A DNA stretch of 64,000 bases from Candidatus Nanohaloarchaea archaeon. GTDB taxonomy: Archaea; Nanohalarchaeota; Nanosalinia; Nanosalinales; Nanosalinaceae. A program made the translations under genes and the position numbers. Below, piece by piece: positions 6,967 through 30,346 of this stretch (positions within the stretch are counted from its first letter, which is position 1; every line of letters starts with the position of its first letter). Where the stretch lies: NCBI GenBank assembly GCA_014297435.1, contig JACOQA010000002.1:160001-224000 (forward strand). The letters are read 5' to 3'. The notes beneath the pieces are model-generated. The model made no database searches. It saw nothing but the letters and a program-made list of their open reading frames with translations, and was not told the DNA's origin.

Positions 6967-8030
6967 GAATACTTTTTATGGAAAGATGGACCTCTGATCC
7001 TAGAGGAGGAACAGAGTCAATAAAAACCCTTTTTGAGGAAGTAAGCAAAGAACACGAAACGAAGTTCATATGGAGAGGCAACAGAAAAACCGAGGAGGGC
7101 GAGGAAGCCGCCAAGCTTTATTCGAACTCTATCAGCCCTTACGTACCTTTGGAAGTTGAGAAATTATTGCTTTTCCTTGAACCTCAACTTACCGGTCTCT
7201 ACGAAAGAATCGACGAATTTGATCCCGATCTGATAGTTACGCAGTCAGAGTCCTCATATATTGCAGTTAAGTACGCTCAGGAAAACGACTGCCGATCATG
7301 CGTGTTCTTGAGAGCATGGGAGCTTCTCTACGCTTCCGAAAAAACTCACGGAGGAAATATGATCGTCTCCAAAATTGCGAACTCGGCTATAAGGCCTTTA
7401 AACAAAAGGCTGGCCGACTATTGCCTCGAGAATGCCGATATTCTTGTAGCTAATAGCAAATATACTGCCGGAGTGTATGAGGATTACATAGAGAGAGATC
7501 CCGAAGTAGTCTATCCCTTTGTTGATCTTGAGAAGTATAGAACGGAGCCTGGCGAAAAGATTCTCCATGTAAATCCCTCGAAGGATAAAGGAATTGATCT
7601 GACTCTTGATGTTGCCGAGGGAATGCCGGAAGAACATTTTATTATCGCTGGAAACCCTAGCAGCGAAATAGCTGAAAGAATAGAGGGTCTTGAAAACGTT
7701 GAATGTCTTGGATATGTAGAGGATATGAAAGAGGCATATTCTCAGACCAAGATTGCATTAGTTCCATCAAAATGGGATGAACCCTTTGGGAGAATACCTA
7801 TTGAAGCAGGAGCTTCCGGTATACCTACGGTAGCCAGCGATCGAGGAGGTTTGCAAGAGTCAGTCGGAGAAAAAGCGCTCCTAGCTCTTAATCAAAAACC
7901 GGAAAGTTACATCGAAAAGATTCGACAAGTAGATGAGAGCTATGAAGAATATTCCGGGAAAGCCAAGAAAAATGCTGAGGAGAAGAAGATAGACCATCAG
8001 ATTAATAGATTTTTGAATTTAATTAGTTGA
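6963..8030 (+). CDS. Glycosyltransferase family 4
   Basis: GGTE, KGID, EPFGRIPIEAGASGIP, RGGLQE. Confidence 0.93.
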   Translation: MRILFMERWTSDPRGGTESIKTLFEEVSKEHETKFIWRGNRKTEEGEEAAKLYSNSISPYVPLEVEKLLLFLEPQLTGLYERIDEFDPDLIVTQSESSYIAVKYAQENDCRSCVFLRAWELLYASEKTHGGNMIVSKIANSAIRPLNKRLADYCLENADILVANSKYTAGVYEDYIERDPEVVYPFVDLEKYRTEPGEKILHVNPSKDKGIDLTLDVAEGMPEEHFIIAGNPSSEIAERIEGLENVECLGYVEDMKEAYSQTKIALVPSKWDEPFGRIPIEAGASGIPTVASDRGGLQESVGEKALLALNQKPESYIEKIRQVDESYEEYSGKAKKNAEEKKIDHQINRFLNLIS

Positions 8031-8942: not shown

Positions 8943-9774
8943 ATGTCGCTTTATTCTTTTTACAAGAAATGGGTCCTTCCGAAAATCGAGACTCGCCGTG
9001 GATCAAATTTCATCTGTCGACATCTAAAGAAGTTGTCTCTAGGCAGTCTGGAGTCTGTTCCAGTATCAGAGAGAGAGAGAAGGGATAGGAGACAAAGAAT
9101 GGGATAATCTGATAATATTGGATGCGTGTCGGCACGATCTTTTCGAGGAGGTTGTAGGGGAATCCGATTACCGTTATTCTCTAGGCTCCAATTCTTCTGA
9201 ATTTGTAGAAAAGAATTTTTCTGAAGGAGATTGGTCTGATACTGTTTATGTGACAGCTAATCCACATTTTCACAAGACTCATTTTGAAAGTTTAACAGGA
9301 AAGAAGGCCGAGGAAGTATTCCATGAAGTTTTTCATACCTATGAGACAGACTGGAATAAAGACGAAAGAACTATTATGCCTGAAGATGTAGCTCGCGATG
9401 CTGAAACTGCAGCAAACCTATTTCCTGATAAGAAACTAATTATACATTTTATGCAGCCGCATTATCCCTTTCTCAATTCCGATTTAGAGGAAAGCGGTAT
9501 CAGAATAGTTGATGGAGAGGGCGGAAAAACTATTTGGGAGAGAGCTGAAAGGGGGGAAATAGATAAGAGAGAAGTGCGGGGTGCTTATAAGAGAAATCTC
9601 GAAATCGTAATGGAGTATGTAAAAGACTTGAATTTAGAAGGGACGACTAGGGTTACTGCTGACCATGCTAACTTGTTTGGAGAAGGAGGAATATATGGTC
9701 ATCCGAAGGAGGCTCACGTTAAGCCCCTACTTAGGGTACCATGGTACGATTTAAAGGCCGCTAGGGCCAATTGA
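8943..9774 (+). pseudogene. AlkP-superfamily (sulfatase-like) gene, frameshifted at a (GA)6 repeat
   Basis: ATG 8943 gives MSLYSFYKKWVLPKIETRRGSNFICRHLKKL, homologous to the paralogs' N-termini. The catalytic part (WDNLIILDACRHD, TANPHF, HFMQPH, TADH, YGHP) is in the +1 frame, which has a TAG at 9040-9042 and no start codon before the conserved WDNLIILD motif. Confidence 0.85.
9068..9080. repeat. Dinucleotide microsatellite A(GA)6
   Basis: agagagagagaga at the frame junction of the 8943-9774 gene. Confidence 0.9.
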
Positions 9775-11840: not shown

Positions 11841-12647
11841 ATGAGCGCGGCTTTCGAGATATACAAGTACTATAGATATAAGTTCTATTCAAAGTACAGT
11901 CATCTAAAGGGCGCCACTTTCCTCCACCGTCAACTCAAAACTCTAGCTCAGAAAGGAATCGAGAAGTTTGATGGCAAAAGCGAATCCATTTTCGAAAAGA
12001 ATGACTGGGATAATTTGATTATTCTTGATGCTTGTCGATACGATCTATACAGGGAGGTAAACGGAGAAGTGGAAAAACGCATAACTCTTGGAAGCGACTC
12101 CCGTCAGTTTATAGAGGAAACATTCTCGGAGGGTGATTTCTCTGATGTGGTTTATGTCACCGCGAACCCGCATTTCTCCGCCTCAAACTTCAGAGAAAAC
12201 ATCGGAAGAGATGTCGAGGAAACATTCCACGAGGTATACCATACGTACGAGACGGACTGGAGTGAGGAAAACGGAACGGTGATGCCAGAGGCAGTGGTCA
12301 GGGATGCCAAGAACGCCAAAAAGCTTTTCCCGGATAAGAAACTGATAATTCACTTTATGCAGCCTCATCATCCGTTTGTTAACTTCGATATCGGAGATGA
12401 TACGGTTGAAAGCAATCCGTGGAGTCTTGCGGAGAGAGGGAAGCTTTCTGAGGAAAAGGTCTGGAAAATGTACCGAGACAATCTCGAGTTCGTGATGCCT
12501 TTCGCCGAACAGCTCTCGGAAGAACTTGGTGGAACTACCGTAATAACAGCAGATCACGGAAACCTGTGTGGTGAAAACGGGCTCTACCACCATCCTTACG
12601 GATCCGATGCTAAAGGCTTGAGGGAAGTTCCGTGGGATAAGAGGTGA
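11841..12647 (+). CDS. AlkP-superfamily sulfatase-like protein (short type)
   Basis: WDNLIILDACRYD, GSDS, TANPHF, HFMQPH, TADHG, HHP, VPW. Confidence 0.85.
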   Translation: MSAAFEIYKYYRYKFYSKYSHLKGATFLHRQLKTLAQKGIEKFDGKSESIFEKNDWDNLIILDACRYDLYREVNGEVEKRITLGSDSRQFIEETFSEGDFSDVVYVTANPHFSASNFRENIGRDVEETFHEVYHTYETDWSEENGTVMPEAVVRDAKNAKKLFPDKKLIIHFMQPHHPFVNFDIGDDTVESNPWSLAERGKLSEEKVWKMYRDNLEFVMPFAEQLSEELGGTTVITADHGNLCGENGLYHHPYGSDAKGLREVPWDKR

Positions 12648-13480
12648 AAAGATTGATTTGGACTAAATTGCATCGGATTTATTCTCATTATATTTTTCCC
12701 AAGGTAAAACACATCAGAGGAACCCATAGACTGATGACCGCAATTCTAAGTAGAGCCTGTGATACTTTGCCTAAAGCGGATGAAGAAGCAATTAAGATCG
12801 AGGAAATAAATTATGATAATTTGATAATTCTTGATGCTTGTCGATACGATCTTTATCAACAAGTAACTGGTAAAAAAGATTATAGAATCTCTACGGGAAG
12901 TAGCTCAAGAAACGTTGTTAAGAGGAATTTTTCAGAAGGCGACTGGTCCGATACCGTGATGATAACAGCAAATCCACACTTTAGTGATCGGCTCTTTGAA
13001 GAAATTACAGGAAGAGAATCGGATCAGGTATTTCACACGGTATTCAAATTATTCAACACGGAATGGAGTGAGGAGGAAGGAACTGTTCTTCCTAGGGATA
13101 TGGTAGATACTGCCCTAACTGCAGAAAAATTGTTCCCTGGTAAGAAAAAGATAATATGGTTTATGCAACCTCACTGCCCATTTATTCCTCTAGAATCTGA
13201 GGAATTAGATAATATTGAGGGTTTAGATTCGGAGGAAAATATCTGGGATAAGGCTGAGCGAGGGAAAATCGGAGATGAAATGCTTTGGACAGCTTACCTA
13301 AATAATCTGAAGTACGTGATGAAGGAGGTAGACGAACTAATAGATAAATTGGAAGGCAGAAGCGTAATCACTTCTGATCACGGCAACCTTGTAGGGGAAA
13401 GTGGTCTTTATGGACATCCTTTAGGTCAGGAAACAAAGGTTCTTAGAAAAGTACCTTTTGATGTCAGAGATCAGAATTAA
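12644..13480 (+). CDS. AlkP-superfamily sulfatase-like protein (short type)
   Basis: NLIILDACRYD, GSSS, FMQPH, TSDHG, YGHP, VPF. Confidence 0.85.
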   Translation: MKRLIWTKLHRIYSHYIFPKVKHIRGTHRLMTAILSRACDTLPKADEEAIKIEEINYDNLIILDACRYDLYQQVTGKKDYRISTGSSSRNVVKRNFSEGDWSDTVMITANPHFSDRLFEEITGRESDQVFHTVFKLFNTEWSEEEGTVLPRDMVDTALTAEKLFPGKKKIIWFMQPHCPFIPLESEELDNIEGLDSEENIWDKAERGKIGDEMLWTAYLNNLKYVMKEVDELIDKLEGRSVITSDHGNLVGESGLYGHPLGQETKVLRKVPFDVRDQN

Positions 13481-13505: not shown

Positions 13506-14924
13506 ATGACAACCTATATTATAGGAATGGATGGGATGGATAAGCAAATTGTAGAAGAGAATATAGAGGAGTTTCCTAATCTGTCCGAATTAACTATAAC
13601 GGGTCTTGAATCGGTAACGCCGCCGATCACAGTCCCTGCATGGGCATGCTCGTTTTCAGGTTTGAATCCGGATAAGCTTGAGACTTTCGACTTCCAGATG
13701 GTTGACGTCAAGACCTATGAGTTCAGCCCGGCGAACCACGAGTTCTTGCAGAAGAAAGGCTTCTGGAACTACTGGAACGACTCCTCAACCATCTTCTCGA
13801 TACCAGGAACCGAGACACCGAAACTTGATGGTTATTCGCTTGGAGGGTTCTTCGACCTCGAGAACCTGGAAACGCATCCTGAAAGCCTGAGAGACGAAAT
13901 CGAAGAGGAGATCGGTGAGATAGAGATCACAAACATGTTCGACCTCAACAGTGAGAAAGAGAGAAGAGAGGCAGCCTATCACAACTTCGAGGTAAGGAAG
14001 AAAATATTCGATCTGTTATTAGAGAAAAACTCTGATGTTTACTTCCCGGTATTCAGACTTCCGGACACCATGATGCACCACACCGATAGTGAGAAGCACA
14101 TGGTCGAATCCTACAGAGAGGTAGATTCATTCGTAGGTGAGCTCAGAGACAAGATGAGCGAAGACGATAACCTGCTAATAGTGTCGGATCACGGCGCTGT
14201 AAAAGCTAAGAGAAGGTTCTTCATCAACACATGGCTCAAGCAAAATGGTTTTGCAAAGCAGAAGGAGGGAGAGGAGAATTCCTTCCTAGATGATTTGGCG
14301 ATGAAGCTGGGCGATATAGGTCAGAGACTTGGATTCAGAGATCTACTCGTAAAGCTAAATAATTTGGCGCAGGAGAAAGCCGGCAAGAACTTCGCACCTA
14401 GAAAGACCAAAGCTCTTGACTCGATGGCCTGGCAGGAGACGGAAGCGTTCTCTTACATGACAGGGGTCTGCGCATACGCAGGAATCTGGATAAACGATGA
14501 ACGTTTCTCGAAGGGAGTAGTTGAAAATACTCAGGAAAAGAAGCAGGAGATCGCATCAGAGCTGGAGAAAAGGAAGGAGGTAAACAAGGTTCGCTTTAGG
14601 GAAGAGGTATACGAGGAAGATATAGAGAAGTTCCCTGACCTTATAGTAGAGTTCTATGAAGACACGAAAGCAGCGTTGGGCTTTCATCCTGAGGTTACAG
14701 CAAGCGTCTCCAGCTATATGCACAGAAAAGAAGGCGTTTTAATGGCGGAAGGATCTAATATAGTCGATTCAGATGAGGAAGCTGAGCTTATCGATTTGGC
14801 GCCGACCTTGCTTCACCTACACGATTACCCTGTTCCGAATCACATGGACGGAGAAGTTCTAGAAATGGTCAAGAAGGGAGATGTGGAGAAAGAGGTGTCG
14901 GAGGTGGCAGGTCTCGATATATGA
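13506..14924 (+). CDS. AlkP-superfamily protein, nucleotide pyrophosphatase/phosphodiesterase-like (long type)
   Basis: IGMDG, SVTPPITVPAW (Thr nucleophile position), PDTMMH, SDHG, H...DLAPTLL. Confidence 0.88.
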   Translation: MTTYIIGMDGMDKQIVEENIEEFPNLSELTITGLESVTPPITVPAWACSFSGLNPDKLETFDFQMVDVKTYEFSPANHEFLQKKGFWNYWNDSSTIFSIPGTETPKLDGYSLGGFFDLENLETHPESLRDEIEEEIGEIEITNMFDLNSEKERREAAYHNFEVRKKIFDLLLEKNSDVYFPVFRLPDTMMHHTDSEKHMVESYREVDSFVGELRDKMSEDDNLLIVSDHGAVKAKRRFFINTWLKQNGFAKQKEGEENSFLDDLAMKLGDIGQRLGFRDLLVKLNNLAQEKAGKNFAPRKTKALDSMAWQETEAFSYMTGVCAYAGIWINDERFSKGVVENTQEKKQEIASELEKRKEVNKVRFREEVYEEDIEKFPDLIVEFYEDTKAALGFHPEVTASVSSYMHRKEGVLMAEGSNIVDSDEEAELIDLAPTLLHLHDYPVPNHMDGEVLEMVKKGDVEKEVSEVAGLDI

Positions 14925-15703
14925 TTGCCAAGATCTACAAGTTCTATCACTCGGAGTTCTATGAAAGGTTCAACCATCTAAAGGGAGCGCATTTCCTGAA
15001 CCGGAAGCTTAGCAGTCTGATAGACTTGGAGCTCGAAACAGTAGATGAAGAACCGACTCATATACGTGAGAGGGAGTGGAAGAACCTGATAATACTCGAT
15101 GCACTAAGGTATGATATTTACTCGGAGAAGTTCTCGGAATCTGACAGCATCACAAGCGTAGGGAGCCATTCTCGTGAGTTTATTAAGAACACCTTCTCCG
15201 AAGGAGACTGGTCCGACACTGTGCTCGTGACGGCGAACCCTCATCACTCCCCTGAATGGTTCGAGAACGCTACTGACAGAAAAATCGAAGATACCTTCCA
15301 TGCGATCTACAGGACTTATGAAACGGACTGGTCAAATGAAGGATCAGTCGGAGCTGATAACCTCGTGAGAGATGTGAAGAGCGCTAGGAAACTTTTTCCG
15401 GATAAGAAGATTATTGTTCACTTCATGCAACCTCACGCACCATTAGTCGGTTCCGATAAAGATACAGGTCATATAAGGTCTATGGGTGAGGGATCGAGAG
15501 AAGAGGCCGTTAAAGCTTACAGAGAAAACCTCGACTATGTTTTGGAGTATGTGAACGAACTAATGGAGTTCTTCGATGGTAGAACAGTAGTAACAGGAGA
15601 TCACGGTGAGTTGCTTGGAGAATGCGATTTTTACTTTAGACATTTCTACGGTCTAAACGCGAAACCTGTAAAGCAAGTACCTTGGCATTTAATTAACGAA
15701 TAA
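14921..15703 (+). CDS. AlkP-superfamily sulfatase-like protein (short type)
   Basis: WKNLIILDALRYD, GSHS, HFMQPH, TGDHGE, VPW. Confidence 0.85.
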   Translation: MIAKIYKFYHSEFYERFNHLKGAHFLNRKLSSLIDLELETVDEEPTHIREREWKNLIILDALRYDIYSEKFSESDSITSVGSHSREFIKNTFSEGDWSDTVLVTANPHHSPEWFENATDRKIEDTFHAIYRTYETDWSNEGSVGADNLVRDVKSARKLFPDKKIIVHFMQPHAPLVGSDKDTGHIRSMGEGSREEAVKAYRENLDYVLEYVNELMEFFDGRTVVTGDHGELLGECDFYFRHFYGLNAKPVKQVPWHLINE

Positions 15704-15770: not shown

Positions 15771-15983
15771 ATGGTAAAGATCGAAGTTGATGACGATATT
15801 TACAGCGTCTTAGAAGCCAGAGCTGCTGAAAAAGATTATGCGGAAACTGAAGAGTATATTGAATATCTTCTGAAGCAGATTGTTGATAAGATCAAAAGAG
15901 AGAAGCAGGAGGACGAAGGTTATTCAGAAGAGGAGGAAGAAAAGGTCAAAGAGAGACTAAAGGATCTGGGCTATTTGGACTGA
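15771..15983 (+). CDS. Small CopG/RHH-like protein with C-terminal KERLKDLGYLD tail
   Basis: N-terminal beta strand (VKIEVDD) plus two helices, acidic linker and LxxLGY tail; TATA-like TTATTAAA ~35 nt upstream. Confidence 0.75.
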   Translation: MVKIEVDDDIYSVLEARAAEKDYAETEEYIEYLLKQIVDKIKREKQEDEGYSEEEEEKVKERLKDLGYLD

Positions 15984-17527
15984 CGAATTAACAAGTCGGC
16001 AATTTTGTCCGCTTCCTCTCCTCTATTCATCCTTCTACCTATTCCAACTATAATATCTCTATCGTCTTCTTTTATGCCGCCCAGCAACACTAGGCAGGCT
16101 ACAAACATAACTCCAAAGATTATTCCTCCAGGAATCAAAGCCCAGACAGGGACAGTGTTCCAGAGAAGATTAAGTCCTAAGTAAACTAGGATTAGGCCAG
16201 GAACTGCAGCTACTACAGGTTTCCATGTGTCTCTGGAGAAGGGGTGGGTTCCTTCAAAGTAGTAGACTTCCAGAAGCAGTAGGGTGCTGATGAAGATTGT
16301 TGAACCTGCTGTGGCTAGTGCGGCGCCAATCATTCCCAAGCCCAGACCGAAGTCGGGTATTAGTACAAAGTTTAAAGCCATGTTCAGAGCTAACTGGGCT
16401 ATGCTGTTCCTGAAAAGTATATGGTTTTTCTCTATTGATTGCAGCACCTGGTCTAAGTGTCCGACTGCTGAGGAGTAGAGCTGTCCTACTGCTAAAATAA
16501 CGAGTACGTTCGAAGCCACGGTGTACTGGCTTCCGAAAAGTATGTGGAGTACTTGTTCTGAGAAGAGGAACATTAGCATGAAGGCGGGGAAGGCCAGGTA
16601 AAAAGTCCAACGTGTCAGGGTTTTCAGCATTTTTTTGAGTCCTTTGCCTTCTTTTTCGGCTTCGGACATGGAAGGCAGCGCTAAACTGTTGAAGGCTTTG
16701 TAAGGTATCATGATTAGTGCGGCGGTCGGCAGTGCGGCGTTGTAAAACCCTACTGTTGCATCGTCCATGAAGTAGCCTAGGAAAGCTGTGTCAGCCCAGC
16801 CCAGGATTGTACCTATCATTCCTGAAAGCACTAAAGGATACGAGTAACGGATCATTTTTCTTCTCTGGAAGTTTACTGATTCTTTTGATCTAATGATTGG
16901 TCCTACTTTGAACTCCATGAAGTAGAATCCTAGTAGGGAGGATAGTACGACCCCTAGCAGCCATCCTCCGGCGGCTCCCGCCACACCCCATCCAAGTACG
17001 ACAAAGCCGATTGTAAAGATTAGTTGTACGATGTTCTGGAAGAACTGGTTTGTGATAACCCGGTACTTCAACTGTTTGTAGGCTACGGTTGTTGAGATGC
17101 TTACACGGGAGAAGACTGAGAACGGCGGTACGAAAGCAAGTATCTTGATTACTGGAGCCACAGCAGGGCTTTTGAAGAAGTTTTGAGCTAGGAAATCTGC
17201 GGAGATAAACATCAGAACTCCCATGAATATTGAAACCGGTAAAGTAATGTTTAGTGCGGAGTAGACAGCGCCTTTGACTGAGGAGAGATCGTTGTCCATC
17301 CTATACTCGGGAACGTATTTTTTGATGGCTTGGTTGATTGCGAAGAGAGAGATTGTGGTTGCAATACCAAGTATCATCAGTCCTTGTGATAGCTGGCCGT
17401 AGGCGTCCGGACCAACCATTCTTGCGACTATGGCTCTGTAGAAGTATGTGAATATTTTCGAGGCGAACATTCCTACTCCTGTCAACACTGCGCCTTTTGC
17501 CAGCGTGTTCAGCCTCTGGTTGGCCAT
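15971..17527 (-). CDS. Oligosaccharide flippase (Wzx/AglR-like, MOP superfamily)
   Basis: ~14 hydrophobic segments, ARMVGPDAYG, DTAFLGYF...VGFYNAA; ATG 17527. Confidence 0.92.
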   Translation of the reverse strand: MANQRLNTLAKGAVLTGVGMFASKIFTYFYRAIVARMVGPDAYGQLSQGLMILGIATTISLFAINQAIKKYVPEYRMDNDLSSVKGAVYSALNITLPVSIFMGVLMFISADFLAQNFFKSPAVAPVIKILAFVPPFSVFSRVSISTTVAYKQLKYRVITNQFFQNIVQLIFTIGFVVLGWGVAGAAGGWLLGVVLSSLLGFYFMEFKVGPIIRSKESVNFQRRKMIRYSYPLVLSGMIGTILGWADTAFLGYFMDDATVGFYNAALPTAALIMIPYKAFNSLALPSMSEAEKEGKGLKKMLKTLTRWTFYLAFPAFMLMFLFSEQVLHILFGSQYTVASNVLVILAVGQLYSSAVGHLDQVLQSIEKNHILFRNSIAQLALNMALNFVLIPDFGLGLGMIGAALATAGSTIFISTLLLLEVYYFEGTHPFSRDTWKPVVAAVPGLILVYLGLNLLWNTVPVWALIPGGIIFGVMFVACLVLLGGIKEDDRDIIVGIGRRMNRGEEADKIADLLIRQSK

Positions 17528-17579
17528 ACACAGAAGGTTTGACTCCACCTTTATTACCGTTTGAATCCAACTCTAAACT

Positions 17580-18446
17580 ATGTCTGAGTTCGACAAAATG
17601 CTTGTAGTAGGGCTTGATGGGCTTGATTACAGGAAAATCCAGAAATACGACTGCAGCAACCTGATGCTTCAAACATTCGGAAAACTGGATACCCAAGGAC
17701 TGGCCTTGAAAACCCCGATGCTCTGGGCCTCAATAATAACCGGCAAAAGCCCTGGAGAACACGGAATCGATGACATGCTCGCGTTTAAAGGTGAAAAAGC
17801 AAGGAAGCTAGACGATTTAATGGACAGGTTCTTCGGTTTCTTCGGCAGATCAGGTCTACACCTAAGAAAGACCGTAAACTACTATCTTTACGACGACAGC
17901 ATCTCGGTTCCCGACAAAAACTACATGGAAACCGACTCTATCTTTGAAAAAGTCGCTGACTCGAAAGCTTTCGACATTCCAGGCTATTCCGAGTATCCTT
18001 ACATTTCCGGCAAGATGAATGTTGCTAAACTATCCCGTAAAAACCCTCCTGTCTCACGTAAACGCGTGAAGAGGGATATTGACGCCGAACATCTTTACAG
18101 GAAAGAGCAGCTGTTCGAAAATATCGGAGAACATACTCTTTTGATGCAGCATTTCCACTACAGCGACTGGCATCAACACATGTATCTCTCCGAGGAAAAA
18201 GATAGGCAATTATACAAAGAAATGGACGAGCTGGCTGGAAAGATACTTGAGAAAGCCGATGATGATACCTTAGTGGTTTTCTGTTCCGACCATGGTTTGG
18301 AAGATGGCGGGCATAGAGATGAAGCGTTTTTCTCGGTAAACACGGATATAGACGAGAACCAGAGTATTACAACACTTCTTGAGAGCTGTCTAGAACATGT
18401 TGACTACAAAAACAAGGAGGAAACCGTTGAATCAATCGAGGTCTGA
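17580..18446 (+). CDS. AlkP-superfamily protein
   Basis: VGLDG, KTPMLWASIITG, SDWHQH, SDHG, GGH. Confidence 0.83.
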   Translation: MSEFDKMLVVGLDGLDYRKIQKYDCSNLMLQTFGKLDTQGLALKTPMLWASIITGKSPGEHGIDDMLAFKGEKARKLDDLMDRFFGFFGRSGLHLRKTVNYYLYDDSISVPDKNYMETDSIFEKVADSKAFDIPGYSEYPYISGKMNVAKLSRKNPPVSRKRVKRDIDAEHLYRKEQLFENIGEHTLLMQHFHYSDWHQHMYLSEEKDRQLYKEMDELAGKILEKADDDTLVVFCSDHGLEDGGHRDEAFFSVNTDIDENQSITTLLESCLEHVDYKNKEETVESIEV

Positions 18447-18448
18447 AG

Positions 18449-19120
18449 ATGGATCTGGTCTTTCTAGGGATGAATCCGGCAGGAGAAAAAACACTGGAGT
18501 GGTTGAAAGAACGTGAAGACGTAGAATTACTGGTCTCGATAAAAGAAAAGAAAAATTTAGGTCTAATAGAAGAAGAGCGGCCGGAACTAGTTATTTCCTC
18601 GGGGTTCGAACACAAAGTACCAAAAGAGATACTTGAGGTTCCGGAAAAAGGGGTTGTCAACTTACATCCTTCGTTCCTACCTTTCAATAGAGGTGCGCAT
18701 CCTTATGTGTGGCCTTTAATCGATGGAACGCCGGCAGGGGTTTCTATACACTACATGAATGAAGGTATTGATGAGGGTCCTGTTATTTCGAGGAGGAAGG
18801 TTGAGAAAAAAGAGACGGATACTGCTAAAGATCTCTACGACCGTTTACAGCATGAAATGTTCCAATTATTCAAGGATTCCTGGAGGGATATAAAGAAAGG
18901 TGTTGAGGGTAGTGAACAGGATCTAGCTAAAGGAACTGTTCATAAAAGCAGTGATTTGGATGATTTAGCGAGTATTAATCCGAACGAAGAGTTTAAGGCT
19001 AAAGAGTTGGTTGATCTTTTACGGGCTTTAAGTTTTCCGCCTCACGGCATGGCTTCTATCGATGGAAAGTTTCTCGAACTGAATGTACGTGAAAATGTAG
19101 GAGACGAACCCAAGCACTAA
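18449..19120 (+). CDS. Formyltransferase (probable sugar N-formyltransferase)
   Basis: NLHPSFLPFNRGAHP, GVSIH...GIDEGP; glycan-cluster context. Confidence 0.88.
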   Translation: MDLVFLGMNPAGEKTLEWLKEREDVELLVSIKEKKNLGLIEEERPELVISSGFEHKVPKEILEVPEKGVVNLHPSFLPFNRGAHPYVWPLIDGTPAGVSIHYMNEGIDEGPVISRRKVEKKETDTAKDLYDRLQHEMFQLFKDSWRDIKKGVEGSEQDLAKGTVHKSSDLDDLASINPNEEFKAKELVDLLRALSFPPHGMASIDGKFLELNVRENVGDEPKH

Positions 19121-19121
19121 C

Positions 19122-19147
19122 TTAATAAACATGCATAAGTTATGCAT
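19122..19147 (+). promoter_or_regulatory. TATA box (TTAATAAA) followed by perfect inverted repeat ATGCATAA-G-TTATGCAT (candidate operator)
   Basis: TATA at 19122-19129; 8-bp arms at 19131-19147, ending 5 nt before the ATG of an RHH gene. Confidence 0.65.
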
Positions 19148-19152
19148 CTTCT

Positions 19153-19347
19153 ATGCCGAGGAAAACAATTTCTCTGCCTGAAGACCTCGCAGACTTCGTG
19201 GATGATAATCATATCAACCTCTCAAGATTCGTACAGGACAAACTAAGAGAGCTAGCAGAATCCGAAAACACCGAAGAAGAACTCTCCGAAGAACAAGCCA
19301 AGGAAATCGCGAAAAAACTCGAAAAACTCGGCTATCTAGACAGGTAA
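19153..19347 (+). CDS. Small RHH (CcdA/CopG-like) protein with C-terminal KKLEKLGYLDR tail
   Basis: RKTISLPEDL...INLSRFVQDKL is a typical RHH; acidic linker; LxxLGY tail. Confidence 0.8.
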   Translation: MPRKTISLPEDLADFVDDNHINLSRFVQDKLRELAESENTEEELSEEQAKEIAKKLEKLGYLDR

Positions 19348-19357
19348 AAACTATATT

Positions 19358-20122
19358 ATGAAAGTATTCGGAATTGACGCCGCGACATGGGACATGATAA
19401 AACCACATAGAGACGAACTACCCAACTTCGACCGTTTAATGGAAGAATGTGACTACAAAACCGTTACGGTCGAGGAAACACCTAAATCCGCGCCGCTCTG
19501 GACATCAATCTTCACAGGTTTAAGACAGAGCGAACACGGACACAAAGACTTCGTGGTGGACGAAGAACTCCAGAAAAGAGAGGATATCGACGGAACATTC
19601 GTATGGGAAGAACTGGAAAACGTTGACTCCAAAATCCTGCAGGTTCCTGCGGTCATTCCGCCAATCAACTACAACACAAGTTACGAACCGGAAGGTTTCG
19701 GAGTCTCAAGTGACCTAGAAGAACTAGAAGCAGACAGAAAGAAACTGATGCAAAAATCGAAGGAAGTACTCGAAGAAGATCCAGAATTTTTCGCTGTAGT
19801 TTTCATGCAGCTCGACAGGGTAAGCCATTTCTACTGGAACGACAAAGAACTGATCCTCGAATGGTACAAGAAAATGGACGAAGTACTCGGCGAACTGCTT
19901 GAGTACTACGACTTTGACTCGGATGAACCGTTGATCGTTCTTTCAGACCACGGGTTCGCCGAGCACGGCGAAGGAAGAGTACAGACTTTACCTGAGGAAA
20001 CACCTCACGGAACCTTGGAAGGCGATCACCATGAAGATGCGGTTTTAATCACGAAAAACGTTGACTTTGAAATCGATCAACCTGAGGACGTCGGAAAGGC
20101 GATCCTCAATCACTTCAACTAA
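19358..20122 (+). CDS. AlkP-superfamily protein
   Basis: FGIDAA, SAPLWTSIFTG, LDRVSH, SDHGF, GDH. Confidence 0.85.
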   Translation: MKVFGIDAATWDMIKPHRDELPNFDRLMEECDYKTVTVEETPKSAPLWTSIFTGLRQSEHGHKDFVVDEELQKREDIDGTFVWEELENVDSKILQVPAVIPPINYNTSYEPEGFGVSSDLEELEADRKKLMQKSKEVLEEDPEFFAVVFMQLDRVSHFYWNDKELILEWYKKMDEVLGELLEYYDFDSDEPLIVLSDHGFAEHGEGRVQTLPEETPHGTLEGDHHEDAVLITKNVDFEIDQPEDVGKAILNHFN

Positions 20123-20145
20123 TCTTTCAAAGAGGTATCACCACT

Positions 20146-21063
20146 ATGACACTTGAAGCACCTGTAACAAGAGAAGAAATTGAAAACGCGCCTACAAAAG
20201 CTAAAATAAGGGCTGGAGAAGAAGTTGTCAAGAAAGCCCTAGAAAAATACGACACCGAAAACGTAGTAATCGGTTTCACAGGAGGAAAAGACTCCACATT
20301 AACCGCATGGCTCGTCAAACGTGTCTGCGAGGAACACGGCTTTGATAAGCCACGTTTCATGTTCGTAGATCACGGCCAGCACTTCGACGAACTTGAAGAC
20401 TACGTCAACCGGTTAGCGGACGACTGGGGGTTCGACGTAATGGTGGCGAAGAACGAAGACTTGATCGAAAAAGCAGAAAACCCTGGAGACAAGGTTCCTG
20501 TCGCAGAACTTAACGAAAGAAACCAGAGGGAAGCAGAACGGGTCGGAGACTACGAAGAAGTGCCTTGGTTGATGGATACCGAAGCCGGAAACCATCTTCT
20601 CAAGACCGTTCCTATGAACGAACTGCTCGAGAACCATAACATAAAGGCCGTGATTAACGGAGTTCGATGGGACGAACACGAATCTAGAGGCGACGAGGAC
20701 TTCTACAGTCCTAGAAACGATCCGGACCACATCAGAGTCCACCCGATCCTTCAACTGGATGAGAGGGATGTCTGGGATGTTTCCTGGTTCCACATGGTTC
20801 CCGATGTAACAGGCATCGACATAGAAGAGTATCCGGAGACCGAAGAGGACTTACCGGAAGGACTGTCGAAAGACAGCGTTCCAATAAGTCCGAAGTACTG
20901 GGCAGGGTTCAGAAGCCTTGGATCAGAAGTTTCGACAGAGAAAAGCGAGGAAGAACCGGCTTGGTTACAGGATGTCGAGAACACGAAGGAAAGAGCTGGC
21001 AGAGCCCAGAACAAGGACGATAAAGAGATCATGGATAAGCTTAGAGAATTGGGTTACATGTAG
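20146..21063 (+). CDS. PAPS-reductase-family protein, CysD (sulfate adenylyltransferase subunit 2)-like
   Basis: PP-loop FTGGKDS, GVRWDEHESR, RVHPIL, FRSLG, ERAGRAQ...GYM. It lacks the C-terminal ECG(L/I)H of reductases and matches the CysD ER-GR...GYF tail. Confidence 0.82.
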   Translation: MTLEAPVTREEIENAPTKAKIRAGEEVVKKALEKYDTENVVIGFTGGKDSTLTAWLVKRVCEEHGFDKPRFMFVDHGQHFDELEDYVNRLADDWGFDVMVAKNEDLIEKAENPGDKVPVAELNERNQREAERVGDYEEVPWLMDTEAGNHLLKTVPMNELLENHNIKAVINGVRWDEHESRGDEDFYSPRNDPDHIRVHPILQLDERDVWDVSWFHMVPDVTGIDIEEYPETEEDLPEGLSKDSVPISPKYWAGFRSLGSEVSTEKSEEEPAWLQDVENTKERAGRAQNKDDKEIMDKLRELGYM

Positions 21064-23017: not shown

Positions 23018-23758
23018 ATGGCTAAGAAACGTGTCTCTTTAACCCTTGAGGAAGAGATGGTGGAGAAAATAGATGCCGAGGCTGAGGAAAGAGAGTTGAA
23101 CAGGTCGCAGACGGTTGAAGAGATAGCGGAGAAGTACTTTGGTGAAAGAGGTATAGATACAGCGGTTGTTTTCTGCGGAGATCCTGAAGCCAAAAGCCTC
23201 GAACTACATAACGGCAAGCCAGTACTATCACATATACTTGACCATCTTGCCGAGGAAGGTATCAACAGAGCTATACTTCTTTCAGGGAAGAATAAAGAGA
23301 TTGAGGAAAGCTTCGGGTCAGAATACAGTGGTTTAGCGCTTGAATATATTGAGGATGAGCCAGAGGGCACGGCTGCAGCCTTGAAGAAAGTTGAAGGTAA
23401 GGTCGATGGCGAGTTCGCTGCTTTGAACGGTCATGTTATCGCGGATGTAGATATGGATGAAATGTTAAGGTTTCACAGAGAGGAGAGCTCTGTTGCAACG
23501 ATCGCATTGACCTCTGTAGAGGATCCTTCGAGCTACGGTGTTGCAAGATTAAAAGGCAGGAAGGTTCTTGGTTTTGTTGAAAAACCAGAAGATGGCGAGG
23601 AACCTTCGCGTTTGATAAACGCCGGCACCTATATTTTCGGATCGGAGATCTTCTCTATGCTGGAAGAGGAAAGTATAGAGACTGTTTTCAAGAACTTAGC
23701 GGATCAAAAACAGCTTTCAGGTTATATTTACGGTGGAAAGTGGCGTAACTGGGATTAG
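23018..23758 (+). CDS. RHH domain fused to a degenerate sugar-phosphate nucleotidyltransferase domain
   Basis: KKRVSLTLEEEM...LNRSQTVE (RHH); GTAAAL, YGVA, FVEKP, INAGTYIF retained; GxGxR loop and NGD Asp lost. Confidence 0.8.
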   Translation: MAKKRVSLTLEEEMVEKIDAEAEERELNRSQTVEEIAEKYFGERGIDTAVVFCGDPEAKSLELHNGKPVLSHILDHLAEEGINRAILLSGKNKEIEESFGSEYSGLALEYIEDEPEGTAAALKKVEGKVDGEFAALNGHVIADVDMDEMLRFHREESSVATIALTSVEDPSSYGVARLKGRKVLGFVEKPEDGEEPSRLINAGTYIFGSEIFSMLEEESIETVFKNLADQKQLSGYIYGGKWRNWD

Positions 23759-26304: not shown

Positions 26305-27398
26305 AGGAAGAGAACAAACCCTATAATTATTACAACCACTTCAACGGAGGTAAGGATCAGTGTTATCTGTTTCTCCGTAAATCCTCTTTTCATTAATGGA
26401 ATTGTAAGGCTGTAATTCTTCGGATGTTGGGGTTCTAGTTTGCCGTTTTCTTTCAGAGTTCCCCAGGAATGGGAGTTAAACCCACTTCTCGCACTAAGCA
26501 AGAACTCAGCGTACCAAGGCGCGAATATGAAAGCTCCGAACTTCTCGATATTTCCCACGACCATGGACGCGAAGAGAACTGCACCAGCCAAGTAAGTTAA
26601 AGAGTCTCCGGGAAGTATCGAAGCCGGATAAAAATTGTACCAAAGGAACGCGAGCAGACATGACGAAGCAGATAAAGCTATCAAAGCTGCTTCCATTCGA
26701 CCGTTAGACAAAGCGAAAACACCTAGCCCGAGACTAGCTACCAGACTCATTGCAGCCGACAAACCGTTCATACCCGCCAGCATGTTCACAACGTTCGAAA
26801 CGAACAGAAGTCCTAAAGGTAGGAGAACTAGTGGGTAGAGCAGACCCCAGTTCACTACACCAATTAAAGGAAGGCTCATCTCCCATGAACCAGCACCTAC
26901 CGCAATCAAAGGAAGTGCGGCCGGTAAGACGAAAAGCATCTTGGGTATCTGCGAGAGCCCGGTTCTATGGATCATCGAATCATCCTTATCATTAGAAAAA
27001 CGGAGAATAAAGCGTTCGATAAAGTGTGTTTTCTCGGTCTCAAGCTCTATCTCAACCTCCTCCTCAACATGTTCGGTTATCAGCTTCTGCAGATCGATAT
27101 GAATATCATCTATCAAGCCAATTAATGCGATAATAGTTACTGAGTTCAGAGCTGCGAGTACAAGCGCCAGGTTGATACTTCTAGAACCGAAAAGCTGGTT
27201 CAAACCGATAAAGCTTGTGACGGCTACAATAAAACCGAAGAGAACAACCAATCCGCCTGAAGTCGGTATCTTCGGTCTATTATTCTTCTGCTGGTCTATT
27301 CCATAAATCCCTGAAGACATCAAGTACTTTTTCGCCGCAGGAACTCCAACAAAAACTGTAAAGAAACCGAGAAGGGAAGAAAGGAGTAGGAACCTCAT
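26301..27398 (-). CDS. aglH: UDP-GlcNAc:polyprenyl-phosphate GlcNAc-1-P transferase (AglH/Alg7, MraY family)
   Basis: IPTSGG, GLIDD, NMLAGMNGL, NFYPASILPGDS; ~10 TM. Confidence 0.88.
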   Translation of the reverse strand: MRFLLLSSLLGFFTVFVGVPAAKKYLMSSGIYGIDQQKNNRPKIPTSGGLVVLFGFIVAVTSFIGLNQLFGSRSINLALVLAALNSVTIIALIGLIDDIHIDLQKLITEHVEEEVEIELETEKTHFIERFILRFSNDKDDSMIHRTGLSQIPKMLFVLPAALPLIAVGAGSWEMSLPLIGVVNWGLLYPLVLLPLGLLFVSNVVNMLAGMNGLSAAMSLVASLGLGVFALSNGRMEAALIALSASSCLLAFLWYNFYPASILPGDSLTYLAGAVLFASMVVGNIEKFGAFIFAPWYAEFLLSARSGFNSHSWGTLKENGKLEPQHPKNYSLTIPLMKRGFTEKQITLILTSVEVVVIIIGFVLFL

Positions 27399-30346
27399 TA
27401 CTCCTCAATTTCCTGCTGGTTTACCTTCCACATTTTGATGAAGCCGTTCGAACCGCCTTCAACCTTCTCAACCCAGTCAATACCATAACCGTCCATCAGG
27501 TAAAGCCGTCCAAGACTGGATCTTGCAACCTTCTTAGGCACTATAACTAATTTTGCCGGCTGCGTCTGCATGTTAGATCTTTGACTTGTTATCGCGGCAC
27601 GTTCTAAGGTGTAGAACGGATTCTCTGCTATACACATTTCGCTGCCGCTTAGCTGAGCTGGTTTTTCAACGTCCAGCTCCTTAATGCCATCTTCGGTTAC
27701 AACACAACCTACTCTTGACCTGCCTGTTGCTGTCTCGTAAATAGCTCTGGTGTCTTGGCTCTTCAGATCGATCGAATTGTTAGAGGATTTAATCTCAGCA
27801 TAGACCGTTCTTCTTCCATCCGAGAAAGTTGACTGGTTTGAGTTCTGGCTGTTCCCTCTCCAGGTCAGCTGTGTCATGTAGTCGAACTCGGAGTTGTCTC
27901 TGTGCGCGATCTGGGAAACTGCGGAGTACTTGCCTATCATCGTCTCATCAAGCACTATGTAATCTATAGAATGCTTTTTGAACAGTTCCGAATGGTTTGA
28001 AGGATTCGTTGAGGTAAGGAAGTCGGCGATAGGATAGTTAGTCTTACCGAGGATATCGCTGGTGTAGTAGCCGGCGTTTCCTCCGTCCGCAACCGCAGCT
28101 CTTCTACCTACCGATTCGAACCAGTAACCGTAGTCCCACCATGATAGGACTACTGAATCTCCGGGTGTTTCTGACTCCATGTAGTCAAGGTTCTGCATCC
28201 AGAGCTGGTTAGGCGAACCCCCAAGATTATCTGATGCTGCAAAACCGGAACTGAAGTTGACCGCTGCAAATGCAACGATAAATACGCCTGCTAGAATCTT
28301 CTTCAGATTCGACGAATTTAGGATTCCTTTGACTTCATCTTCCAACTCGAGAGCCACGTATAGCAAAGGAGTGTTCAGAAGCAGCATGAATCCTATAAGT
28401 TCCAGGTTTGAGGCTTCATAAGCGGAACTGATCGCAAGAACCACTACGTTCGCCACTAGCAGCAGAACAGATCCGCCTATAATGTTGAATGTCGACCTGT
28501 CTAGTTCTCTGGCTTTTAAGTAGATTCTTGAAACCATGTAGCCTCCGAGGAATGCGCTTGAGAACGCGGAAAGGAATACAAGTCTTGACTTTGCTGCTGC
28601 CCCCAGAATGTTTGTAATAGCCCATACTAATCCTAGGATTTGGTAAGACTTCATCTCTATCTTGTAATCTGAAGCCTCCTTGAAGTAGTAGAGCAATCCT
28701 ATACCGGTCACTGAAAGCAGTAACGGATGGAAAACTGCGCTTGAGAAAGGAAGCTGGAACAGGGCTTGGGAAATGTTCGCCCTGTAAAGATTTCCTATCT
28801 GCAGAGGCAGTATAGCGACTCCGGCTGTGAAAAGTGCAGTTACAAGAGAGTTGATCTGGAACGCCTCATCTTCGTCAAAGAAGTAGACTATGCTCAGGCT
28901 GATTAGGAAGATCAGTGCGCCTGCAGCAATCGTCTCGATTCTGTAGAGCGACTGGATTGCGTTAGCACTTTGCAAGGTATTTGTGTATGCAAAGCCGGCG
29001 ATTATAGCAAACCAGCCCATGATCGAGGCTTGCATGTAGCCTAGGTACTTCTTCCAGCCAATTTCTTCTTCGACAACTCCATAACGTCTCAAAACCATTA
29101 GAGTGATTTTTGAGCCGATTACGGGAATGCCTATGATTGCCAGAGTCCAAGCTCCTGAATAGCCTCCTAGAAGGCTTCCGAGAACTGACATTATCTGTCT
29201 AAGGGCGCCATCTCCTATGACAGGTATGTCGGCTAGTAGTCTTGAGACGCCTACTCCTGCGTTTGATGCGCCAAGAGTTCCGGCCATGTCTCCAATACTT
29301 GAGGCTGTGTTCTCAGCCACCGTGCCCGCGATAACTGCGCCTCCACTCTGAGTTACGCGGCTTATAATCGAACTAAATCTGCTGTAGATAAACTGAGAGT
29401 AAAGCGGGGAGAGAGCTACCATGATTAGACCTACTGCGGATATGGAAGGTACGAAGTAAGCCAGCTTGTCCCTTTCAACTATCTCCAGCTTTTCAACTAG
29501 GTAACGTGTCCAGAGAAGTCCTAGAATCGCTATGTTTCCTAAGAACATCGATCCGGTCAAGCCGAATCTCGAAGGGTTGGCTGCTGCTGCGAAACCTCCT
29601 GCAACCAATACAGTTGGGGTGTATACCGCTACTAATTCTTCTATGTCCTGATCTAGGAATGCGGTTATGCCTACTACTAGGGGCAGGAGAAGCCACAGCA
29701 TCTTTGATCCTCCCCAGGAGATAGTGAATATTCCTAAGGCTAGACCTGCAAAGATTCCGGAAATTCTTTCCTTTCGTTTCCAGCCTCTCGTGAAAAAGTA
29801 CATAGAGATTATCATGAAGAGTGTGCCGACAGGCTCCTTCTCGAAGAAGCCGGCAGAAGTTCTGTGCATGACTCCTCCGACTGTAGCTAGAAGGAAGGCA
29901 GCTGAGATGCCTGTGTACTTGTCGAACATTTCTTTTCCTAGGAAGTATGTTGCTACCGTGCTTAGTGCACCCATGAAGGCAGGGAAGAACTGTGCCCACT
30001 CCATGTAGCTGTTGAAGAACAGCGATCCGCCCATTTTATACATGGCTGCGGGTATAACGATTTCTCCCACGTTATGGTGGTGGAAAGGTGCGTTGTAAGG
30101 GAAGTAGCGCATGAAATCTGTTGTAGGTATATTGCCGTCGAGCGCAAGATGTTGGCTCTGTCTAAAGATCCAGTAGGGGTCTAATGCTTGAAGATACTTC
30201 ATCCCCTGTTCCGGTCTGTATCTCAGGAACAGTGCGGTGAGGAAAACAGTGAAAACGGCTGGTGCCGCCCAGTAAGAAACCGGATTTTGTCTAACATCAT
30301 CATACTTATCCTCTAAGCCTTCCCTGAGGTTTCCGAAGTCCATCAT
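27398..30346 (-). CDS. aglB: Oligosaccharyltransferase AglB (STT3)
   Basis: ALDPYW, GFFEKE, TVAE, SWWDYGYW, DETMIGK. Confidence 0.97.
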   Translation of the reverse strand: MMDFGNLREGLEDKYDDVRQNPVSYWAAPAVFTVFLTALFLRYRPEQGMKYLQALDPYWIFRQSQHLALDGNIPTTDFMRYFPYNAPFHHHNVGEIVIPAAMYKMGGSLFFNSYMEWAQFFPAFMGALSTVATYFLGKEMFDKYTGISAAFLLATVGGVMHRTSAGFFEKEPVGTLFMIISMYFFTRGWKRKERISGIFAGLALGIFTISWGGSKMLWLLLPLVVGITAFLDQDIEELVAVYTPTVLVAGGFAAAANPSRFGLTGSMFLGNIAILGLLWTRYLVEKLEIVERDKLAYFVPSISAVGLIMVALSPLYSQFIYSRFSSIISRVTQSGGAVIAGTVAENTASSIGDMAGTLGASNAGVGVSRLLADIPVIGDGALRQIMSVLGSLLGGYSGAWTLAIIGIPVIGSKITLMVLRRYGVVEEEIGWKKYLGYMQASIMGWFAIIAGFAYTNTLQSANAIQSLYRIETIAAGALIFLISLSIVYFFDEDEAFQINSLVTALFTAGVAILPLQIGNLYRANISQALFQLPFSSAVFHPLLLSVTGIGLLYYFKEASDYKIEMKSYQILGLVWAITNILGAAAKSRLVFLSAFSSAFLGGYMVSRIYLKARELDRSTFNIIGGSVLLLVANVVVLAISSAYEASNLELIGFMLLLNTPLLYVALELEDEVKGILNSSNLKKILAGVFIVAFAAVNFSSGFAASDNLGGSPNQLWMQNLDYMESETPGDSVVLSWWDYGYWFESVGRRAAVADGGNAGYYTSDILGKTNYPIADFLTSTNPSNHSELFKKHSIDYIVLDETMIGKYSAVSQIAHRDNSEFDYMTQLTWRGNSQNSNQSTFSDGRRTVYAEIKSSNNSIDLKSQDTRAIYETATGRSRVGCVVTEDGIKELDVEKPAQLSGSEMCIAENPFYTLERAAITSQRSNMQTQPAKLVIVPKKVARSSLGRLYLMDGYGIDWVEKVEGGSNGFIKMWKVNQQEIEE

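Follow-up and report, generated by a model that had tools for sequence, protein, structure and literature searches.

A family of small, predicted ribbon-helix-helix proteins with a conserved C-terminal LGY tail heads sulfation operons in archaea and some bacteria and has its tail pattern in common with a CysD-like enzyme

In a 64,000-nucleotide stretch of the genome of a Candidatus Nanohaloarchaea archaeon (contig JACOQA010000002.1, positions 160,001 to 224,000; hereafter, the window), three genes inside 5.3 kb were found to terminate in the same pattern, [IV]xx[KR]LxxLGY. Two of them, P0001 and P0002, encode small proteins of one family, which are predicted to have the ribbon-helix-helix (RHH) fold and were named RHHt, and the third, P0003, encodes a CysD-like PP-loop enzyme. 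Comparison with loci of other genomes showed that RHHt is the leader gene of sulfation operons in many archaea and some bacteria. The RHHt proteins are read here, at about an even chance, as antitoxin-like autoregulators of these operons, the tail of which would dock on a partner site that the CysD-like enzyme would use as well.

All three genes lie on the plus strand. P0001 (15771-15983) encodes a 70-residue RHH protein in which an acidic linker leads to the LGY tail; its translation ends in ...EEEKVKERLKDLGYLD*, and the tail (15945-15980) consists of the core V59-Y68 (VKERLKDLGY) followed by L69 and D70. P0002 (19153-19347), a paralogue of P0001 with 64 residues, ends in ...AKEIAKKLEKLGYLDR*, and its tail (19306-19344) consists of the core I52-Y61 (IAKKLEKLGY) followed by LDR. 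P0003 (20146-21063), which has a PAPS_reduct domain (Pfam PF01507, 9e-23), ends in ...DKEIMDKLRELGYM*; its tail core I295-Y304 (21028-21057) lies in a C-terminal block formed by the last 24 residues, E282-M305 (20989-21060, ERAGRAQNKDDKEIMDKLRELGYM). The LGY endings that a first-pass annotation of the window had placed at 15983, 19347 and 21063 match these translations. Among the 330 open reading frames (ORFs) of at least 40 amino acids in the window, P0001, P0002 and P0003 are the only ones with LGY within the last 12 residues, and in three further ORFs the end is GY-x(0-4) but the Leu pattern is missing. A scan of the whole window in six frames (1,821 stop-to-stop segments, 90,952 residues) with the core [IVLM]xx[KR]Lxx[LM]GY gave three matches, each terminating one of the three genes; one looser match, on the minus strand and ending at 45101, is antisense to a long gene. 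For 63 likely window genes, a composition model predicts that 0.057 will have LGY among their final six residues, and three were observed (Poisson P = 3e-5). The DNA of the tails is identical at only 17/30 bases for each pair among the three genes, which rules out a recent duplication of tail DNA, and the likeness is thus old and held at the protein level.

The profiles of P0002 and P0001 were aligned with hhalign over their full length (73 columns) with a probability of 96.9% and E = 2e-10. By this comparison P0001 and P0002 are paralogues of one RHH family, and the two RHH tails therefore count as one origin and not as independent cases. The first-pass annotation had counted two RHH proteins and one enzyme, of unrelated folds; the tail is indeed common to the three, but the RHH pair is paralogous over its full length. 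The tail was kept in 65/65 homologues of P0001, while the identity of the body dropped to 37-50%, and in 118/119 listed homologues of P0002, in the alignment of which I52, K55, L56, L59, G60 and Y61 are invariant. In an alignment of 71 RHHt sequences from about nine lineages, with identity down to 24-30%, the sole invariant columns were V59, L63, L66, G67 and Y68, and K60, R62 and Y68 are conserved. Synonymous changes made up 70% of the codon differences in the ten tail-core codons and 21% in the RHH body, and conservation at the RNA or DNA level instead of the protein level was ruled out by this share. Judged from these alignments, conservation in the RHHt family is higher in the tail than in the putatively DNA-binding body, and the tail is a module kept by selection.

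A profile search covering 1.84 billion representatives gave 2,197 family representatives at E <= 1e-3 and 716 at E <= 1e-10, and among 147 newly listed matches the tail was present in its strict form in 134 and in its loose form in 143; the ORFs of the fetched loci described below contain 79 relatives of P0001. No Pfam or NCBIfam model matched P0001 or covers the RHHt family, and P0002 matched Pfam CcdA weakly, at 20.4 bits against a cut-off of 22.4. The ESM Atlas returned just clusters that carry an automatic 'CopG family' label and have no Pfam family in common, and the PDB holds no member of the family, the best sequence match being the RHH part of NikR (E = 0.12). Tandem-RHH relatives match Pfam RHH_1 at 7.7e-6. 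An AlphaFold2 (AF2) model of P0001, with a predicted local distance difference test score (pLDDT) of 87, consists of an extended N-terminal segment and helices at residues 8-20, 26-48 and 53-65 (the tail), the linker before the tail helix being weaker. The top Foldseek matches of this model are all RHH domains (antitoxins, NikR, PutA and CopG) with template modelling (TM) scores of 0.5-0.57 and root-mean-square deviations of 1.0-1.4 A, every E value being above 1 for so small a domain. Larger architectures were also seen: P0308 (185 aa) joins a tandem RHH to RHHt with the tail internal, P0312 (107 aa) has two tails in one protein, and P0322, P0389, P0423 and P0427 (~205 aa) have an extra N-terminal RHH and an insert of ~100 aa.

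One scan of species-representative genomes gave at least 361 RHHt relatives, of which the best 80 loci, each reaching no farther than 10 kb to either side, were analysed; their 1,240 mechanically called ORFs were clustered and named by Pfam. An RHHt gene is present in 79 of the 80, over which all linkage counts were taken; many of these loci are related by descent, and the counts are not independent events. Sat, the gene for ATP sulfurylase, was found in 48/79 loci, a gene for a CysD-like enzyme in 11/79 and either of them in 59/79; adenosine 5'-phosphosulfate (APS) kinase was found in 42/79 and a sulfotransferase in 8/79. An alkaline phosphatase (AlkP)-superfamily gene occurs in 50/79 loci (the type of about 460 residues, named AlkP-462, in 41/79), and an AlkP-type gene or a sulfotransferase in 58/79; 29/79 have no AlkP-superfamily gene, and eight of those have a classical sulfotransferase. 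Six loci are without any of these sulfation genes: five have just 4-12 ORFs (3 to 10.8 kb), and the sixth is L060. The ATP sulfurylase gene usually follows the RHH gene directly, and the median gap to the next gene was 45 nt where that gene is Sat and 7 nt where it is the CysD-like gene.

The loci belong to Nanohaloarchaea, Woesearchaeota, Asgard groups, Thermoplasmata, Methanosarcinales, Methanofastidiosia, Patescibacteria, Aminicenantes and Eubacteriales. The gene order is RHHt, Sat, AlkP-462 and APS kinase in the Asgard groups; RHHt, Sat, DHH phosphatase and APS kinase, in some cases followed by a sulfotransferase, in Thermoplasmata; and RHHt, Sat, sulfotransferase and APS kinase in Patescibacteria. 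In Woesearchaeota, Methanosarcinales and one Halobacteriota genome, a tandem-RHH gene is followed by RHHt, a CysD-like gene, DUF2061, a HIT gene and an EF-Tu-like GTPase gene, and in Aminicenantes and Eubacteriales, RHHt adjoins AlkP-462 or a sulfotransferase, with UDP-glucose dehydrogenases in addition. In the loci of the Asgard groups and Aminicenantes, AlkP-462 is at most two genes away from RHHt. RHHt is thus the leader gene of sulfation operons in many archaea and some bacteria, and the association of RHH-LGY genes with sulfation loci, the lack of which the first-pass annotation had named among its refuting conditions, was strongly borne out in other genomes, as regards both Sat or CysD-like genes (59/79) and AlkP-type or sulfotransferase genes (58/79). 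Besides the CysD-like gene, the operons of L012, L014, L024, L044, L047, L068 and L078 contain genes for a HIT-family protein, for a transporter of the TauE/SafE type, for DUF2061 and for an EF-Tu-like GTPase. One of these loci, L024, has a LAGLIDADG-type ORF after the CysD-like gene, the product of which runs 6 residues past GYM.

Upstream of P0002, a 17-bp palindrome, ATGCATAA-G-TTATGCAT (19131-19147), ends 6 nt before the start codon and is a candidate operator. It is the one window match to the pattern AT[AG]CATA-N1-5-TATG[CT]AT, which gave seven matches in the 1,096,046 bases of the loci (position 2212 of L010, 4935 of L048, 4568 of L012, 8268 of L014, 1663 of L024, 6637 of L044 and 4810 of L047), all at the starts of tail-bearing RHH genes. 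The genes concerned are of the P0002 type or tandem-RHH genes, in Nanohaloarchaea and Woesearchaeota/Methanosarcinales, and the palindrome is a likely shared operator. Repeats of the TAATTA type, a pattern chosen after the data had been viewed and in AT-rich genomes, were found in 44/78 windows upstream of RHHt and in 5/177 other intergenic windows; in Asgard and Thermoplasmata (L016-L067 and others), such hexamers recur with a period of ~10 bp from about 20 to 100 nt upstream of RHHt. Upstream of P0001, just a likely TATA box and a ribosome-binding site were seen.

In P0003, the PP-loop T45-G46-G47-K48-D49-S50 is invariant among 48 sequences, and so are E282, R283, G285, R286, A287, Q288, K290, M296, L299, R300, G303, Y304 and M305 in the C-terminal block, which aligns with that of CysD (1zun_A) to two residues from the end of 1zun_A. 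The AF2 model of P0003 (pLDDT 89) matched reductases of 3'-phosphoadenosine 5'-phosphosulfate (PAPS) and APS, FAD synthase and CysD in Foldseek, the reductases and 1zun_A at E <= 2e-8. The curated CysD cut-offs were missed (NF003587, 76.8 vs 195 bits; TIGR02039, 48.9 vs 396.6), and since P0003 falls below them and has no GTPase partner in the window, it was named CysD-like and not CysD. A CysN-like or EF-Tu-like GTPase lies near the gene in 7/79 loci (Woesearchaeota and Methanosarcinales relatives).

The 120 listed homologues of P0003 come from Nanohaloarchaea and Halobacteria and are 51-90% identical to it; 98/120 end in GYM (one in GYC), 20/120 run 7-20 hydrophobic residues past GYM and 2/120 are truncated. 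The extensions past ...LGYM (P0123, P0127, P0141 and others) have a mean hydropathy of 0.9-2.8 and, from their composition, may be a membrane anchor. In P0003 itself, a TAG stop directly follows GYM, and the read-through frame is unrelated. The canonical-type CysD of L070, which lies next to a GTPase and an RHHt gene, ends in ...MEDRKKEGYF, and the Gly-Tyr-hydrophobic end is thus ancestral in CysD; the P0003 tail, as aligned, extends the native CysD C-terminus. What makes the end of P0003 resemble the RHH tail, namely the two Leu and the K/R pattern, is peculiar to the CysD-like clade of archaea. In 1zun_A, 204/325 residues are resolved, and the C-terminal tail of CysD is probably not visible there.

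Across the loci, the strict tail ends 107/1,240 ORFs of six families, all from sulfation clusters (RHHt 87, CysD-like 8, P0002-type RHH 7, sulfatase 2, DUF2061 2 and short-type AlkP 1), and the strict motif is internal at just 2 sites of 324,127 locus residues. The portability claimed for the tail in the first-pass annotation holds in this sense, in that it ends six protein families in the 80 fetched loci. The same annotation stated that many sulfatase/AlkP proteins carry the tail in cis; some do, but at 3/82 AlkP-superfamily proteins (sulfatases 2/14, short type 1/10, AlkP-462 0/45, others 0/8 and 0/5) they are far rarer than many. In L048, a short-type AlkP (1424-2374), for which no Pfam family was found, ends in ...SEEDEKVKEKLRGLGYL, which is nearly the RHHt linker plus tail, and by its sequence this gene looks like a natural fusion of the tail to an AlkP. 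The APS kinases in L015-L067 end in a helix followed by GY-hydrophobic (...KMGYLPN, ...NGY[IV]), which resembles the tail more weakly.

The tail Tyr is followed by one to three residues, and 20/120 CysD-like homologues are extended by 7-20 residues; the tail thus needs no free C-terminus. HbYX (proteasome-type) and PDZ-type motifs require a free C-terminus, and these and similar free-end motifs do not fit the Gly before Tyr, the residues after Tyr and the CysD-like extensions. An ESCRT (endosomal sorting complexes required for transport) MIM1-like helix has a similar pattern but is an unlikely reading, as the family is found in lineages, bacteria among them, in which ESCRT machinery would not be expected. 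A membrane-targeting helix is unlikely as a general role because DUF2061, itself a membrane protein, has the tail. A complex prediction in which residues 36-70 of P0001 were combined with chains of the AlkP-462 type and of the CysD-like enzyme gave a score of 0.00 and a mark of 0.32, the partner fold being uncertain, and speaks neither for nor against binding.

The autoregulator reading starts from the build of the RHHt proteins, in which an N-terminal, putatively DNA-binding RHH would be joined through an acidic flexible linker to the tail, with ~70 residues in all. The tail itself would be an amphipathic C-terminal docking helix with a Gly cap and a Tyr-hydrophobic anchor (consensus [IV]xx[KR]LxxLGY[LIM]). 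Most likely, RHHt would bind the repeats in its own promoter and thereby regulate the sulfation operon, and the tail, once bound to a protein site, would signal what state the sulfation machinery is in; the CysD-like enzyme, the native C-terminus of which has the same shape, would dock there too, as would some DUF2061 proteins and a few sulfatases. The sequences show the conservation, the paralogy, the gene linkage and the upstream repeats, from which we infer that RHHt binds DNA, regulates the operon and docks on a receptor shared with these proteins, and the link to known proteins lies in the combination of RHH, acidic linker, terminal helix and position as first operon gene, as found in RHH antitoxins and small metabolic repressors.

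The RHH type II antitoxins (CcdA, ParD, CopA_SO, AtaR and MazE9) are, like RHHt, encoded by the small first gene of an operon and share with the predicted build of RHHt an N-terminal RHH and, after it, a flexible stretch with a partner-binding helix at the C-terminus; they gave the top Foldseek matches of P0001, and P0002 has its weak CcdA match, no score being significant. In contrast to the antitoxins, the genes downstream of RHHt encode ATP sulfurylase, APS kinase, AlkP-type enzymes and sulfotransferase, not a toxin, and the RHHt tail is near-invariant across phyla and common to enzymes. No cognate toxin gene was found downstream: the window has an AlkP gene (19358-20122) and a convergent flippase gene in the places concerned, and the loci have Sat, CysD-like or AlkP-462 genes. 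NikR, MetJ and PutA have an RHH domain that regulates a metabolic operon, as is predicted for RHHt. NikR and PutA are in the Foldseek list of P0001, and the best PDB sequence match, to NikR, covers the RHH part alone; NikR senses its effector via a full C-terminal domain, whereas RHHt has about 18 residues of linker plus helix. P0003 is like CysD (1zun) in its PP-loop and in a C-terminal ER.GR...GY-hydrophobic block, and differs from it in scoring below the NCBIfam cut-off, in having no CysN-like GTPase among the window ORFs scanned and in the two Leu of the RHH tail.

Several points weigh against the autoregulator reading. The RHH assignment stands on weak scores, with no Pfam or NCBIfam match for P0001 and Foldseek E values above 1. 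The linkage counts come from the best 80 of at least 361 relatives, many of the loci being related and the counts not independent, and the TAATTA pattern, besides having been selected on the data from AT-rich genomes, is not found upstream of the window's P0001. CysD-like proteins end strictly in GYM-stop and RHH proteins in GY[LIM][DE]; the two kinds of tail may serve different ends and be alike just as helix caps. The canonical-type CysD beside RHHt in L070 has kept GYF but lacks both Leu. Finally, no gene family occurs in every one of the 79 loci, so that one partner for all of them would have to come from a gene elsewhere, unless the tail works without a partner.

The AlkP-superfamily genes of the window were typed by comparison with related loci. 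An NPP-like gene of the AlkP-462 type (13506-14924, plus strand; Pfam Phosphodiest PF01663, 4e-25) is followed by a short-type gene (14921-15703, plus strand) directly upstream of P0001; three short-type paralogues lie at 9118-9774, 11841-12647 and 12644-13480, an AlkP-284 type at 17580-18446 (plus strand; Phosphodiest 1.8e-12) and an AlkP-257 type at 19358-20122 (plus strand; Phosphodiest 3.6e-24), between P0002 and P0003. All seven are tail-less (0/7 in the window), as the first-pass annotation had stated; its description of their ends as lying at or just after a last core strand holds for the four short-type proteins, which end in VPW/VPF plus 3-9 residues, and not for 13506-14924 and 17580-18446, which have an acidic ending (...EVAGLDI and ...VESIEV, respectively). 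A block of P0002-type RHH, in some cases DUF2061, AlkP-257 and CysD-like genes recurs in L004, L005 and L007. Among 44 AlkP-462 sequences, no change was seen at D9, D187, H191, D228 or H229, and conservation at T42 and H406 is >=90%; this set of bimetal-site ligands and Thr nucleophile is present in the 13506-14924 type of the window, and 45 relatives were found in the fetched loci. An ending [LIV][DE][VFIL] after an acidic run was also seen in 15/31 nanohaloarchaeal AlkP-superfamily proteins (e.g. ...EVEDLDF) vs 4/70 other proteins; it spans three AlkP families (loci L001-L008) and is absent from the two LGY-tailed sulfatases. A defence-system reading of PglZ matches of the short AlkPs (E 6e-4 to 6e-3, below the cut-off) was rejected in view of the clear AglB glycosylation cluster described below.

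AlkP-462 (e.g. 2906-4294 of L029) and the classical sulfotransferase were found in 41 and 8 loci, respectively, and in none together (P = 0.002), and among the Sat loci, AlkP-462 (29) and DHH phosphatase (9) never occur together (P = 6e-5), both P values being taken over lineages that are not independent. AlkP-462 and the sulfotransferase occupy the equivalent position in otherwise similar Aminicenantes/Eubacteriales loci, and AlkP-462 may replace the sulfotransferase or take over the removal of 3'-phosphoadenosine 5'-phosphate (PAP).

The first-pass annotation had proposed that RHH dimers supply the tail in trans to activate or dock the tail-less AlkP enzymes and that the Tyr may carry sulfate. 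This is considered improbable. The AlkP-superfamily genes are present in 50/79 loci, with AlkP-462 near RHHt in Asgard and Aminicenantes; three natural fusions of tail and AlkP-superfamily protein exist, the short-type one nearly copying the RHH linker and tail; the window itself combines a CysD-like gene and seven AlkP genes with no APS kinase or classical sulfotransferase among the ORFs scanned; and no locus has both AlkP-462 (41 loci) and a sulfotransferase (8 loci). However, 29/79 loci are free of AlkP, eight of these have a classical sulfotransferase, for which no carrier is needed, and Thermoplasmata and Patescibacteria use Sat, APS kinase and a classical sulfotransferase; the tail is also on the CysD-like enzyme and on a membrane protein, cis tails are as rare as 3/82, and the RHHt family looks like a DNA-binding autoregulator. 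The AlkP enzymes are frequent neighbours of RHHt and are not supported as an obligatory receptor of the tail. A bolder form of the carrier idea, in which an ATP-sulfurylase-type enzyme would load sulfate on the tail Tyr as an aryl sulfate, AlkP enzymes would pass it to glycans in place of PAPS-dependent sulfotransferases, and the RHH protein would be both swinging-arm carrier and sensor tying transcription to sulfate charge, is very improbable. The carrier role would parallel that of the mobile C-terminal residue in the related PAPS reductases. AlkP-superfamily enzymes are arylsulfatase-like, and the presence in the window of a CysD-like enzyme, seven AlkP enzymes and two tail proteins with no APS kinase or sulfotransferase among the ORFs scanned is compatible with it, as is the lack of any locus with both AlkP-462 and a classical sulfotransferase; against it, RHHt also heads loci with the full PAPS and sulfotransferase set.

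The tails might instead act on one another, those of RHH dimers pairing for cooperative binding to tandem operators and those of the enzymes plugging in to tune repression. The spacing of V59, L63 and L66 (i, i+4, i+7) would suit a short coiled coil, the repeats that resemble operators stand in tandem with a ~10-bp period, natural tandem-RHH forms and a two-tailed protein exist (P0308 and P0312), and the Mnt repressor has a C-terminal tetramerisation helix; such pairing would require no universal partner gene, consistent with none having been found. About two heptads are short for a stable bundle, however, and the invariant Gly-Tyr and the acidic run are left unexplained, and oligomerisation is judged unlikely. 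It is quite unlikely that the tail, perhaps with the RHH dimer, binds sulfate, APS, PAPS or PAP as an effector and that the CysD-like tail forms an active-site lid. Sulfate-nucleotide chemistry is the sole element common to all loci, K60, R62 and Y68 are conserved, the CysD-like tail follows the invariant ERAGRAQ block, and PAPS reductases have a mobile C-terminal tail at the active site; but a 12-residue helix makes a poor ligand site, the tail is found on a membrane protein and on sulfatases as well, and structural support is lacking, the C-terminal part of CysD probably being unresolved in 1zun_A. Little credence is likewise given to mere resemblance, by which the RHH tail and the CysD-like end would be separate and helix-Gly-Tyr-hydrophobic a common way of ending a helix. 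The GY-hydrophobic end is native to CysD, APS kinases of the same loci end in ...MGYLPN or ...NGY[IV], and the endings are family-specific (GYM-stop vs GY[LIM]D). Yet the archaeal CysD-like clade, unlike canonical CysD, matches the RHH tail at the two Leu and the K/R positions, and a motif with 2 internal sites in 324,127 residues ends six families, all of them in sulfation clusters.

As for the setting of these genes, close homologues bear the names Candidatus Nanohalobium or Nanohaloarchaea, and a Pfam scan of the ORFs showed that an N-glycosylation cluster fills the first 37 kb of the 64-kb window, with six glycosyltransferases (2072-8030), UDP-glucose dehydrogenase, sugar nucleotidyltransferases, a formyltransferase and AglB/STT3 (27398-30346, minus strand). 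A polysaccharide flippase gene (15971-17548, minus strand; Pfam Polysacc_synt_3, 2e-31) is convergent with P0001 and overlaps its last 13 bases, an arrangement that recurs in the nanohaloarchaeal loci L002-L005, L008 and L010. Sat, APS kinase, CysN-like GTPase and classical sulfotransferase were all absent among the window ORFs scanned. An RHH domain (RHH_1, 5.5e-7) fused to a sugar nucleotidyltransferase and without an LGY tail is encoded at 23018-23758 and has a relative in L005 with 66% identity, and a 71-aa small protein of the ThiS family (ubiquitin-like) is encoded at 39010-39225, adjoining an 8-oxoguanine glycosylase gene.

Archaeal surface glycans are often sulfated; to our knowledge, the control of archaeal sulfation genes is poorly known, and so are the sulfate-adding enzymes of haloarchaea. 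In Haloferax volcanii, according to the accessible portion of PMC3892788, just Agl7 is tied genetically to the sulfation of the lipid-linked sugar. No description of the RHHt family or the LGY tail was found in the open-access literature, and the accessible portions of PMC5770160, PMC5867893 and PMC11625862 make no mention of either. RHHt is put forward as a large, unnamed family of small, predicted RHH proteins, the presence of which signals an operon for sulfate activation and sulfation in lineages from Asgard archaea to Patescibacteria. Its conserved tail offers a handle for finding the partner of RHHt, and the AlkP-462 type is a possible substitute for classical sulfotransferases. If the tail links the state of the enzymes to transcription, RHHt would be a compact feedback device for sulfation.

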